Positions 23,195 to 62,454 of a DNA stretch of 64,000 bases are shown here, piece by piece. Made by a program: the position numbers and the translations under genes. The stretch's first letter is position 1. The number at the start of each line of letters is the position of its first letter. The stretch is from sequence record QB031382.1, one strand, 5' to 3'. Origin of the DNA: a phage. The notes under the pieces were generated by a model. That model made no database searches. It worked only from the letters and a program-made list of their open reading frames with translations, and had not been told where the DNA came from.

Positions 23195-23590
23195 TTACTG
23201 AAACAGTGCAGATAAATTACCTTCTGGTGGAAACTTATCTGCCAAGAACGGAGTCAGAACAGTGGCCTTCTGAAGATCTGGAGTCCACTCGTTGTTCAGA
23301 ACATCCCAGTAGTACGCAATGTTGCTGTGTGGGTGCCGCATTACGAACTTTTTCCCTTCGTAGTCAGTTGAAACCTCTACAGAAGAAATAACAACAGAAT
23401 CTTCAAGAGTTTCTTCATAGAAAGATCCACCCTCGAATTTCCAACGAGATGCAAGAGCTCCTGCCTTAAACGCTGCAGATAACGGACTGTCGGCAAGAAC
23501 ATACATTTCTTGCACTCTGTCGCTGCGATCTTTGCTTCTTACGTTGTATACAGTATCTGAGCTATACTCAACACGGTATAGACTTACCAT
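23195..23590 (-). CDS. hypothetical protein, paralog of 25400..25810
   Basis: Track ORF; shares HP.S....YW.....WTP motif with 25400..25810. Confidence 0.55.
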   Translation of the reverse strand: MVSLYRVEYSSDTVYNVRSKDRSDRVQEMYVLADSPLSAAFKAGALASRWKFEGGSFYEETLEDSVVISSVEVSTDYEGKKFVMRHPHSNIAYYWDVLNNEWTPDLQKATVLTPFLADKFPPEGNLSALFQ

Positions 23591-24282: not shown

Positions 24283-24552
24283 TTACTCTTCTACAACCTC
24301 ATACACATCCGGAGTTACAATCAACTCTTCTCCGTTACCCGGTGCAACAAACACCACCAGACCTTCAGGTGTGTGCTTTTTAGCCATTTCGATGACATCT
24401 TCTCGCAGAGCTGGCTCCATCAGATCAAAACCTTCACCCAGGGCATCACGAACCACCTTCATGTAGTCCACTGGTTGTGCTTCAACGATCATGCCTTCAA
24501 CCAGTCCACAGTTTTTGTCTGCCAGCTCAGTTTGGAATAATTTAATTTTCAT
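24283..24552 (-). CDS. hypothetical acidic protein, MKxK family
   Basis: Track ORF; ends VYEVVEE. Confidence 0.5.
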   Translation of the reverse strand: MKIKLFQTELADKNCGLVEGMIVEAQPVDYMKVVRDALGEGFDLMEPALREDVIEMAKKHTPEGLVVFVAPGNGEELIVTPDVYEVVEE

Positions 24553-24578: not shown

Positions 24579-24680
24579 TTAATAGCCGTAACCTAACACA
24601 TTAACTACAACTGCGATTGCAAACATAATTTCAAAGCATGCAATCTCTACATTTGGGACTAATTTCTTAATCATGCCCAT
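24579..24680 (-). CDS. small hydrophobic protein, 33 aa, absent from track
   Basis: ATG at 24680 after GAGGTG; hand translation MGMIKKLVPNVEIACFEIMFAIAVVVNVLGYGY. Confidence 0.4.
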   Translation of the reverse strand: MGMIKKLVPNVEIACFEIMFAIAVVVNVLGYGY

Positions 24681-24695
24681 TGTAGCACCTCAATC

Positions 24696-25007
24696 TCAAA
24701 AGTCAATCTTTACTTTACCTTTTCCCTTACCTTTCTTTCCACCACATTTAGCCAACTGGCGTGCTGCAACATCTACCATACGGTCAGTTGCCTCGTAAGC
24801 ATCACTACCTTTAGCTTTGGCAATGACTTCTTTTCCAGAATTGTCAAAAATGAAAGCCATAACTTCCTGGTGATCATTTTCAACTTTTACACTCACACGT
24901 GCATAGTTGGCAGAGGGGTGCAAACGCTCCAGCTTAGACATTTTGTGGGAAATGAAAGACACCATACCTTCAGTGATTTCTACGTTGCCAGTGATTTCAA
25001 TTTGCAT
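24696..25007 (-). CDS. ribosome hibernation factor-like protein (HPF/RaiA fold candidate)
   Basis: MQIEITGNVEITEGMVSFISHKMSKLERL...ATDRMVDVAARQLAK parallels E. coli RaiA/HPF; Lys/Gly-rich C-terminal tail. Confidence 0.5.
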   Translation of the reverse strand: MQIEITGNVEITEGMVSFISHKMSKLERLHPSANYARVSVKVENDHQEVMAFIFDNSGKEVIAKAKGSDAYEATDRMVDVAARQLAKCGGKKGKGKGKVKIDF

Positions 25008-25091
25008 AACGTGCTCCTTTTAAGGAAGAGAGAATAACAACCATCTCTTGAAAACAATAATACTATAGCTGAAGCGTTGTGTCAACAGTTT

Positions 25092-25399: not shown

Positions 25400-25810
25400 T
25401 CAGCTTATCTTTTCTTCAACAACCCCATAGCTTGGGGCAGAGTCAAGAGCTTTCTGGTTTAAAAGTGGTGTAGCAGAATCTGCAAACGGTGTCCAGGTTT
25501 TTGTTCTGGCATTCCAGTAATGCTTCACTCTAGAATCAGGATGCACTATAATAAAAACTTTTTCACTTGTCAACACGTTAATTTCTTCCACACCCTTGCT
25601 GACAATTTCTCCGTCATAGCCTCCAGTCTGGTATCCTTCGTACCAGGTTCTTGCATAGGCATATCCAGCCTGCCAGCATGCAGCCTCTTCAGAGGTGGAG
25701 ACTACGTAGAAGTCTTTCTCAAACTCTGGGATACGCCCTTGCTTTACGCTCCAAGCTCCGCGAATTTTCATTGTAACTTTAAACAGTTTATTTTTCACAA
25801 CAGTCCCCAA
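25400..25810 (-). CDS. hypothetical protein, paralog of 23195..23590
   Basis: Track ORF; shared C-terminal motif. Confidence 0.55.
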   Translation of the reverse strand: MGTVVKNKLFKVTMKIRGAWSVKQGRIPEFEKDFYVVSTSEEAACWQAGYAYARTWYEGYQTGGYDGEIVSKGVEEINVLTSEKVFIIVHPDSRVKHYWNARTKTWTPFADSATPLLNQKALDSAPSYGVVEEKIS

Positions 25811-26065
25811 TCACGGCTCTAAAATATCTGCATCTGACCCTACCCCAAAGGCATAATACGAGTCCTCTCCGAAATAATATTCCGGAGCACCAGCCGCGAT
25901 CAGGTCTGATCCCAAAATGAACACCACATTGTGGCCTACATAGCTGTGATTTTGCCGCACAGGATCATCCCACGGCAACCCTTCGAAGTATACAGCAGGT
26001 ACTACCTTTCCCTTCAGGAATGATTGTCCCAAGTAGACGTTAGAGTCAAGAATTTTAACCTTCAT
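25811..26065 (-). CDS. hypothetical protein, KGxDLxAAGA family
   Basis: Track ORF; MKVKILDSN...LGSDLIAAGAPE. Confidence 0.55.
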   Translation of the reverse strand: MKVKILDSNVYLGQSFLKGKVVPAVYFEGLPWDDPVRQNHSYVGHNVVFILGSDLIAAGAPEYYFGEDSYYAFGVGSDADILEP

Positions 26066-26279
26066 AATCGTCCTCCACTATCTCCACATCCTCCCCTAGG
26101 GCAAAGTTGTAGGCCCACTGACTGTCAAAGCATTCCTGAGACGCGCCAGCGGCAATAAGATCTGCCCCTTTTATTTTTAAAAGGTCAGGATAATCTTCGT
26201 TAGGGATAGCGGTAAACACTTTTCCAACTAAAGGCTCTTGACCAATATAGAAGTTTGAATCTAAAACTTTCACTTTCAT
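26055..26279 (-). CDS. hypothetical protein, KGxDLxAAGA family
   Basis: Track ORF; MKVKVLDSN...KGADLIAAGASQ. Confidence 0.55.
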   Translation of the reverse strand: MKVKVLDSNFYIGQEPLVGKVFTAIPNEDYPDLLKIKGADLIAAGASQECFDSQWAYNFALGEDVEIVEDDYEG

Positions 26280-61641: not shown

Positions 61642-61716
61642 GCCCTGTTAGCTTAGTGGATAAAGCAGCGGCCTTCTAAGCCGTTGACACTGGTTCGAGT
61701 CCAGTACGGGGTGCCA
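61642..61716 (+). tRNA. tRNA-Arg(UCU): tRNA-Arg (anticodon UCU)
   Basis: Hand-folded cloverleaf: acceptor GCCCTGT/ACGGGGT, loop CTTCTAA, T-loop TTCGAGT, encoded CCA. Confidence 0.8.
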
Positions 61717-61720
61717 AATT

Positions 61721-61807
61721 GGGGAGTTATCCCGTAGAGGTAGCGGTGTAGACTGTAAATCTATTGTCATTGCGACTCGGGTGGTTCGACTCCACCACTC
61801 CCCACCA
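61721..61807 (+). tRNA. tRNA-Tyr(GUA): tRNA-Tyr (anticodon GUA), long variable arm
   Basis: Acceptor GGGGAGT/ACTCCCC, loop CTGTAAA, T-loop TTCGACT, encoded CCA. Confidence 0.75.
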
Positions 61808-61921
61808 AATTTATATTTTTAAATGCATAAATCATACAGATAATGACATTGATATTTATCGTCGTTTATACTAGTCACTAACTGCTCGAAAATCAGTGTC
61901 ATTATCAGTGTAATTTATAAA

Positions 61922-62012
61922 GGAGGGTAGGGAGCAATGGTGCTCAAGCGGTCTTGAAAACCGTCCCGTTGAGGATGACTCGATGATGGTTCGATTCCAT
62001 TACTCTCCGCCA
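61922..62012 (+). tRNA. tRNA-Ser(UGA): tRNA-Ser (anticodon UGA), long variable arm
   Basis: Acceptor GGAGGGT/ACTCTCC with one GU, loop CTTGAAA, T-loop TTCGATT, encoded CCA. Confidence 0.75.
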
Positions 62013-62110
62013 CATTGTTGACCTTGTAATTAAGCGAAAGCCGGAAGCAGAACCGGATTATCAAATGTTACAGTCGTCATCGCCGACTAGCCACATGGTC
62101 AACATATTGC

Positions 62111-62207
62111 GCTAGGTAAGCCCTTTGGCAAGGGCGAGGATTTTTAATCCTGAAAATAGACGCGGTAGTCGTTGAATACATAGGTGGTTCGATTCCATCA
62201 CCTAGCA
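62111..62207 (+). tRNA. atypical tRNA-like gene, identity unresolved
   Basis: Perfect acceptor GCTAGGT/ACCTAGC, D-arm and T-arm (TTCGATT), but the anticodon region is a 6-bp hairpin AGGATT/AATCCT with UUU loop and about 30 extra nt; 97 nt. Confidence 0.4.
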
Positions 62208-62214
62208 CCTTTTT

Positions 62215-62290
62215 GCTGATGTAGCACAATCGGTAGTGCAATTGATTTGTAATCAATAGGTTGCAGGTTCAAGTCCTGCCATCAGCACCA
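62215..62290 (+). tRNA. tRNA-Thr(UGU): tRNA-Thr (anticodon UGU)
   Basis: Acceptor GCTGATG/CATCAGC, stem ATTGA/TCAAT, loop TTTGTAA, T-loop TTCAAGT, encoded CCA. Confidence 0.8.
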
Positions 62291-62291
62291 T

Positions 62292-62366
62292 GGCCCTGTA
62301 GCTGGAAGGTTCAAGCAAGCGACTCATAATCGCCAGACGGTGGTTCAATTCCACCCAGGGCCACCA
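62292..62366 (+). tRNA. tRNA-Met(CAU): tRNA-Met or tRNA-Ile2 (anticodon CAU)
   Basis: Acceptor GGCCCTG/CAGGGCC, loop CTCATAA, T-loop TTCAATT, encoded CCA. Confidence 0.75.
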
Positions 62367-62377
62367 AATTATAAATA

Positions 62378-62454
62378 CTCCGCGTAGCTCAGCTTGGTAG
62401 AGCGCCTGATTTGGGATCAGGAGGTCGAGTGTTCGAATCACTCCGTGGAGACCA
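62378..62454 (+). tRNA. tRNA-Pro(UGG): tRNA-Pro (anticodon UGG)
   Basis: Acceptor CTCCGCG/CGTGGAG, D-arm GCTCAGCTTGGTAGAGC, loop TTTGGGA, T-loop TTCGAAT, encoded CCA. Confidence 0.75.

Follow-up and report, generated by a model that had tools for sequence, protein, structure and literature searches.

Ribosome-associated proteins encoded by phages are rare, and the HPF of phage rV5 is among the few reported from cultivated phages (Mizuno et al. 2019, Nat Commun 10:752; PMC6375957). Its gene has been annotated since 2006 (DQ832317, ORF 144) and hpf was subsequently listed as an auxiliary gene of rV5-like phages (Mathieu et al. 2020); a literature search for transcriptomics or later functional work on rV5-type phages returned nothing past these two papers. 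The existence of a phage hpf is already known from GenBank and the 2019 paper. The additions made here are the core conservation of the gene, its conserved promoter motif, its dN/dS, its old acquisition and the altered ribosome-facing residues of its product.

Two bacterial proteins serve as the nearest points of comparison. The short HPF of E. coli and other Enterobacterales (YhbH; 2rql, 4v8h, 6h4n) has the fold predicted for the phage protein (rmsd 1.2-1.7 A) and is collinear with it over residues 1-89 at 41-43% identity. The phage protein departs from E. coli HPF in K80 to V, K89 to G, T53 to F, H55 to F and H62 to I, and ends in a Gly-Gly break and (KG)n tail where the E. coli protein has KHKDKLKQH. 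In addition, host HPF affects 100S ribosomes, whereas expression of the phage protein did not (PMC6375957). E. coli RaiA (YfiA/pY) likewise shares the fold and belongs to the same binding-site family, but by sequence the affinity of the phage protein is to HPF. The C-terminal extension of RaiA is believed to block both RMF and the formation of 100S, and the phage protein, if it acts as the competitor proposed below, would produce a RaiA-like outcome, i.e. no 100S.

S30AE-fold proteins are also found in other large lytic enterobacterial myoviruses, namely Cronobacter phage GAP32 (K4F6Q6) and Escherichia phage PBECO4 (L7TII8). These are, however, only 17-23% identical to the phage HPF studied here, fall into phrog_8990 rather than 12469 and were missed by tblastn at 1e-5. 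The low identity, separate PHROG and tblastn miss together indicate that the GAP32/PBECO4 and Vequintavirus HPFs are independent acquisitions.

Vequintaviruses are common gut coliphages with a broad host range and feature in phage-therapy collections. It is a practical question how lytic phages deal with hibernating ribosomes when the host is not growing, and the residue-level differences described below yield a specific prediction, which is weak, competitive binding.

The hpf gene and its expression signals

The window analysed here is a stretch of 64,000 nucleotides of phage DNA (QB031382.1). An earlier note, made from the sequence alone, had proposed a ribosome hibernation factor-like gene in a phage, and the phage context is borne out: the window belongs to Vequintavirus (rV5/FV3-like), with 96-97% identity over 3 kb and 25 kb. 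The hpf region has 96.6% identity to Escherichia phage FV3, and several vequintaviruses match a 25-kb stretch at 96-97%. The open reading frame agrees residue for residue with the protein quoted in that note, with the correction that it lies on the minus strand. The gene and its upstream signals are as follows.

24696..25007, minus strand: hpf (orthologue of rV5 ORF144), encoding a 103-aa short-form HPF/YfiA (S30AE) homologue, ATG start
25013..25020, minus strand: Shine-Dalgarno AAAGGAGC, read from the sequence, with AAGGAG about 7 nt 5' of the hpf ATG
25057..25085, minus strand: candidate sigma70-type promoter TTGACA-17-TATTAT, from a consensus scan (11/12 matches), directly upstream of hpf

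Over its 103 residues the protein matches rV5 ORF144 (ABI79209) and copies in dozens more records with 100% identity, and rV5 ORF144 is the same gene by position, promoter and neighbours. The two differ in that the hpf of the window stops 2 codons before rV5 ORF144 (..KIDF* versus ..KIDFGE*). Annotations of the identical copies vary and include 'sigma 54 modulation factor', 'ribosome hibernation promoting factor' and 'RaiA'; in the bov10K2/bov22_2 and NWU records hpf is labelled 'ATP-dependent protease La type I'.

Existing annotation of related phages coincides with these signals. The rV5 record DQ832317 annotates the hpf promoter as 'Sigma70-type promoter; P144', and a ribosome-binding site is annotated in the phage Murica record at the position equivalent to the hpf Shine-Dalgarno. 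The -35 block AAACTGTTGACACA upstream of hpf is invariant across the window, rV5 and a divergent lineage (L002) described below. The promoter-like motif suggests that hpf is transcribed from its own host-type (sigma70) promoter within a block of small genes and, judging by this motif alone, hpf is presumably an early gene.

Family membership and predicted fold

The hpf protein matches Pfam PF02482 with 48.4 bits (E=1.7e-12; gathering score 23.7), residues 3-88 aligning to profile positions 1-83 of 88, and the NCBIfam model TIGR00741 (HPF/YfiA family) with 46.0 bits, above the cut-off of 40.9. In a phmmer search of PDB sequences, E. coli HPF (2rql/4v8h) ranks first (E~5e-12) with a gap-poor alignment of 1-89 to 1-89, while the RaiA/protein Y chains 4v4g and 5fdu reach 13-14 bits in the same search. 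The best-matching subfamily is NF007780 / PRK10470, the gammaproteobacterial short HPF equivalog, at 55.9 bits and below its 125-bit cut-off; the RaiA/YfiA equivalog NF007654 / PRK10324 gives 17.7 bits, below its 158-bit cut-off. On these scores the phage protein is clearly HPF-like and not RaiA-like. As both equivalog cut-offs are missed, it represents a distinct subfamily, and it has its own PHROG (12469). Since the RaiA cut-off is among those missed, the 'RaiA' label on many GenBank records is a family-level name only. The C-terminal dimerisation domain of long HPFs (PF16321) is absent from the 103-aa protein, which gives a single PF02482 match.

A word-index homologue search with the single phage sequence retrieved phage copies only. 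An exhaustive HMMER search of 1.84 billion representatives gave 22 matches at E<1e-3, a number kept low by the size of the library. One HMMER match, P0007 (1160 aa, 8 stretches), was rejected as a false positive; it is a PPC-domain repeat protein.

A single-sequence AF2 model of the phage HPF was too poor for use (pLDDT 55) and was replaced by a model from a 55-sequence alignment, which reached pLDDT 85 and pTM 0.75, with the caveat for the fold evidence that this alignment consisted of family members. The predicted topology is beta-alpha-beta-beta-beta-alpha (E2-7, H13-29, E33-43, E46-55, E60-67, H70-92), with a core fold of residues 1-88 and a flexible polybasic tail of residues 89-103 that is disordered in the model from residue 90 onwards (pLDDT <50). 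The best 36 Foldseek matches in the PDB are all HPF/YfiA/pY chains, with TM 0.89-0.93 to V. cholerae and E. coli HPFs. V. cholerae HPF (4hei) superposes with TM 0.93 and rmsd 1.0 A, and ribosome-bound E. coli HPF (6h4n_x) with rmsd 1.2 A at 41% identity. Comparison with HPF/YfiA structures had been put forward as the check on the proposed identity, and an S30AE fold is what the model predicts. With this fold predicted, the HPF-family identification stands, and the profiles and the model together support the HPF/RaiA-like (S30AE) assignment that had been read from the sequence pattern.

The Lys/Gly-rich tail that the same reading had described is real. It consists of GGKKGKGKGKVKIDF, carries a net charge of +5 and opens with a Gly-Gly helix breaker at the end of alpha2. 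Its coding sequence includes the following feature.

24696..24743, minus strand: A/G-rich run GGTGGAAAGAAAGGTAAGGGAAAAGGTAAAGTAAAG... in the tail-coding part, which readily undergoes frameshifts and changes in length among vequintaviruses

Across seven vequintavirus copies the tails range from 11 to 18 residues, all with a net charge of +4 to +5, and the core (1-88) is almost invariant. Besides point changes, single-base indels alter the tail run between isolates by shifting the frame (loci L006 and L007): APCEc02 ends in ..GRKKGKGERQSKD and Murica in ..KKGKGKAK. Such indels may reflect genuine slippage or sequencing errors in homopolymers. The tail of RaiA is longer and is acidic at its end, whereas that of the phage protein is polybasic. 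The possibility that the phage tail acts as a RaiA-like blocker of RMF was considered and down-weighted. Basic C-terminal tails of like length are common among ordinary short HPFs (the P. aeruginosa short HPF has 102 aa), so that the tail alone is no sign of RaiA-like RMF blocking.

Conservation, selection and origin

By tblastn, hpf was found in about 118 vequintavirus records, with at least 95% identity in 117, whereas a gene flanking it has just 60-80% identity in 104 of the 118. A syntenic orthologue with 64% identity (P0004) is encoded in a divergent lineage represented by uncultivated contigs of 125-137 kb, which are collinear with positions 21.9-28 kb of the window and whose neighbouring proteins are 28-84% identical. 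Between the hpf of the window and this orthologue, pN is 0.26 and pS 0.74 (saturated), giving a dN/dS of about 0.1; by part, dN/dS is 0.085 for the core and 0.29 for the tail. As judged from these alignments, hpf is shown to be a core gene of the genus Vequintavirus under purifying selection.

This bears on whether hpf could be a neutral passenger, taken from a host and without importance to the phage. Its location in a region of small, accessory-looking genes and its lack of a known phenotype would fit such a role. The gene is nevertheless present in essentially every vequintavirus record and far better conserved than its neighbours, and the orthologue has been kept at the same position in a lineage with saturated synonymous sites at a dN/dS of about 0.1. 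It also has its own conserved promoter and a GC content that has converged on that of the phage. We therefore regard neutrality as very improbable.

The phage protein shares 41-44% identity with E. coli HPF (BLAST, HMMER, Foldseek), and the closest cellular proteins among the 1.84 billion representatives searched with HMMER are at most 45% identical. The GC content is 41.3% for hpf and 42.6% for the window. Based on the 41-44% identity, the phage-matching GC and the saturated dS between phage lineages, the sequence evidence indicates an old capture of a gammaproteobacterial hpf and not a recent copy of the host gene. The 'relatively recent' transfer considered by Mizuno et al. 2019 (PMC6375957) is unsupported by these same values. 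The small genes flanking hpf are confined to Vequintavirus, and synteny with sister genera thus cannot date the acquisition. Across 50,697 phage records, HPF homologues are essentially limited to Vequintavirus and the GAP32/PBECO4 jumbo phages, apart from a few short contigs, most of them unannotated.

The divergent lineage itself is uncultivated and vequintavirus-like. It comprises Logan/ENA contigs of 15.7-125.8 kb (L002 to L005) that carry the 64%-identical hpf and are collinear with the window over about 6 kb at 28-84% protein identity; the longest contig of the corresponding protein cluster measures 136,793 bp. The lineage is missing from the collection of 50,697 phage records, and NCBI files its HPF protein under 'Escherichia coli'. 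Another irregularity of host assignment concerns at least 18 GenBank records of the MG0656xx series (e.g. MG065654 and MG065647; hits H27 and H55), which are named 'Campylobacter phage' with the host Campylobacter jejuni. They are rV5-like genomes and share the hpf region with coliphages at 90-99% identity. It looks as if the Campylobacter host label is mistaken, or E. coli was the source from which the phages were carried over.

Ribosome-facing residues

Contact residues were taken from cryo-EM structures of HPF/YfiA on ribosomes of four Gram-negative pathogens, together with published E. coli structures, and were mapped onto the phage protein via alignment; in E. coli the rRNA-contacting basic residues of alpha1 and alpha2 are K23, K26, K80, R83, K87, K89 and K91 (bioRxiv 10.1101/2025.10.07.680626). 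The phage HPF keeps five of these as K22, K25, R83, K87 and K91 (equivalents of E. coli K23, K26, R83, K87 and K91) and has an Arg (R28) in place of E. coli Q29. E43, A63, D69, D75 and Q84 are retained as well.

Two lysines of alpha2 are replaced. In place of K80 the phage HPF of the window has V and the divergent lineage has T; in place of K89 they have G and S, respectively. Positions 80 and 89 are each K/R in 128 of 133 cellular-type relatives, long HPFs included. The sheet surface facing uS9 and m2G966 is altered too: both phage lineages have Phe for the His/Arg at position 54 that contacts the uS9 C-terminus (R/H in 102 of the 133 relatives), and Phe or Arg replaces the Thr in contact with m2G966. 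The near-invariant DMYAAID reads DAYEATD in both. At positions that are otherwise almost invariant, changes fixed in the two phage lineages affect K80, K89, M70 (to A), I74 (to T) and H55 (to F). From these substitutions we infer a ribosome-facing interface that is weakened or rewired, and the altered contact residues offer a concrete, testable reason for the negative ribosome-association result published for rV5 HPF.

Published expression experiment and possible roles

In that experiment, rV5 HPF was produced from pBAD24 in E. coli NM522 grown from an overnight preculture to OD600=1. The protein was detected in the crude extract and was absent from 70S and 100S ribosomes pelleted through 500 mM NH4Cl, while 100S abundance was unchanged and the 70S profiles were normal (PMC6375957). 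The authors consider the 500 mM NH4Cl wash and the late-exponential cells possibly inadequate conditions (PMC6375957). Their supplementary protein lists provide a partial control in the form of a host factor. On ribosomes of the culture expressing bL12, host RaiA was found with 2 peptides and 6 spectra, in the range of S14/S17 (Supplementary Data 3-5, PMC6375957), and it was weakly detected in the shallower bS21 ribosome sample (PMC6375957). The RaiA on the bL12-culture ribosomes shows that an S30AE protein can survive the 500 mM NH4Cl wash. As RaiA survived this wash and the viral HPF was undetected after it, the viral HPF either binds more weakly than RaiA or does not bind.

These data weigh on the idea that the phage protein is a true hibernation or shut-off factor that would bind vacant 30S/70S ribosomes as tightly as host HPF/RaiA and either shut down host translation during takeover or stably park ribosomes and shield them from RNases or ribosome-targeting defence toxins until they are needed. 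The earlier note had suggested that a phage copy could shut down or protect host ribosomes or counter translation-targeting defences, and the published data speak against the shut-down version. The S30AE fold is intact and K22, K25, R28, R83 and K87 are kept, the polybasic tail (net +5) could make up for the lost lysines, and hpf is under strong purifying selection. Host hibernation factors, moreover, obstruct the A and P sites and are said to preserve ribosomes. Yet cells expressing the protein grew to OD600=1 with normal 70S and unchanged 100S (PMC6375957), and this growth argues against a potent translation inhibitor. The protein was also absent from the ribosomes after a wash that host RaiA withstood in a parallel sample, both phage lineages lack two almost universal lysines that contact rRNA, and a link to defence finds no support in PADLOC, which gives no match for hpf or its neighbours. 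We consider such a tight-binding role improbable.

Alternatively, the loss of K80 and K89 could equally mean that ribosome binding was lost and a new target gained. In this case the S30AE scaffold would work off the ribosome and bind a different RNA or protein (a transcript from phage or host, or a host factor), leaving the family name merely historical. The negative ribosome association (PMC6375957) fits a change of target, as does the substitution of near-invariant positions in a manner fixed in both lineages, and the continuing purifying selection implies that some function has been kept. On the other hand, most ribosome-facing basic residues remain, along with the five other retained positions listed above, and the negative assay was made under conditions that its authors themselves question. 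The gene context points to no other partner, the neighbours all being small ORFs without a Pfam match. A new target therefore seems doubtful to us, although it deserves some weight.

The reading that we tentatively prefer is that the phage HPF is a weak, reversible binder of the HPF/RaiA site on vacant 30S/70S ribosomes, which modulates or competes with host hibernation and forms no stable lock. As homology suggests, it would dock at the site used by host HPF and RaiA, in the decoding-centre channel of 30S that spans the A and P sites of vacant ribosomes. The lost lysines and the negative salt-wash result both point to a weak affinity. Binding would be salt-labile and fast-exchanging and would compete with host RaiA/HPF, and hence with RMF-dependent 100S formation, so that idle ribosomes might be held for the phage in a shallow, quickly reversible state. 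Whether the effect is anti-hibernation or mild protection is speculation, and a suggestion of this kind was already made by Mizuno et al. 2019 (PMC6375957).

A possible hint of competition lies in the same proteomics data. On ribosomes of the viral-HPF culture, the viral HPF and host RaiA, HPF and RMF are all unlisted, and the crude extract of that culture contains host RaiA, HPF and RMF (PMC6375957). The absence of RaiA from these ribosomes draws no comment in Mizuno et al. 2019 (PMC6375957). It fits competition by a salt-labile binder, but is a single observation from one mass-spectrometry run per sample, unreplicated, non-quantitative and without a listed wild-type control. Perhaps the phage protein goes further and acts as an anti-hibernation decoy, whose weak binding at the HPF/RaiA site, tuned through the loss of K80 and K89 and the flexible polybasic tail, would evict host RaiA/HPF and prevent RMF-driven 100S formation while being readily displaced by initiation factors and mRNA. 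This is unlikely in our estimation. If true, the phage would rouse ribosomes, or keep them from going dormant, in gut E. coli that grow slowly or are stationary, and the RaiA missing only from the ribosomes of the viral-HPF culture (PMC6375957) would be the first trace of it.

Neighbouring genes and other features of the window

A second S30AE gene was searched for in the window and none was found. An RMF-like partner was likewise looked for in the window by tblastn with an approximate RMF query, a weak test that found none. The 89-aa ORF at 24283..24552 (minus strand), two genes downstream of hpf, was considered as a second HPF copy and rejected, as it has no Pfam match and no HPF similarity. 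Its equivalent bears the label 'sigma 54 modulation factor' in several vequintavirus records, which is an off-by-one annotation slip.

Directly 3' of hpf lie a small ORF and its putative promoter.

24579..24680, minus strand: 33-aa hydrophobic ORF MGMIKKLVPNVEIACFEIMFAIAVVVNVLGYGY (rV5 ORF145), directly 3' of hpf
24706..24679, minus strand: promoter-like TTGACT-16-TACAAT with TG, for the 33-aa ORF, overlapping the hpf 3' end

This ORF is annotated in many vequintaviruses and absent from the divergent lineage (L002); its product may be a small membrane peptide. The surrounding block of small genes contains paralogues, all on the minus strand and without a Pfam match. One pair, at 25811..26065 and 26055..26279, encodes MKVK[IV]LDSN.Y.GQ proteins, and the 131- and 136-aa products of another, at 23195..23590 and 25400..25810, match the same L002 gene.

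Towards the end of the window a group of tRNA-like genes is found.

61642..62454, plus strand: cluster of 7 tRNA-like genes (Arg-TCT, Tyr, Ser, Thr, Met, Pro)

One of the seven, a 99-nt ARAGORN call at 62111..62209, is without an assigned identity, and its 'anticodon' (atcc) has four bases. Possible readings are a pseudo-tRNA, a tRNA with an intron or one resembling a frameshift suppressor.
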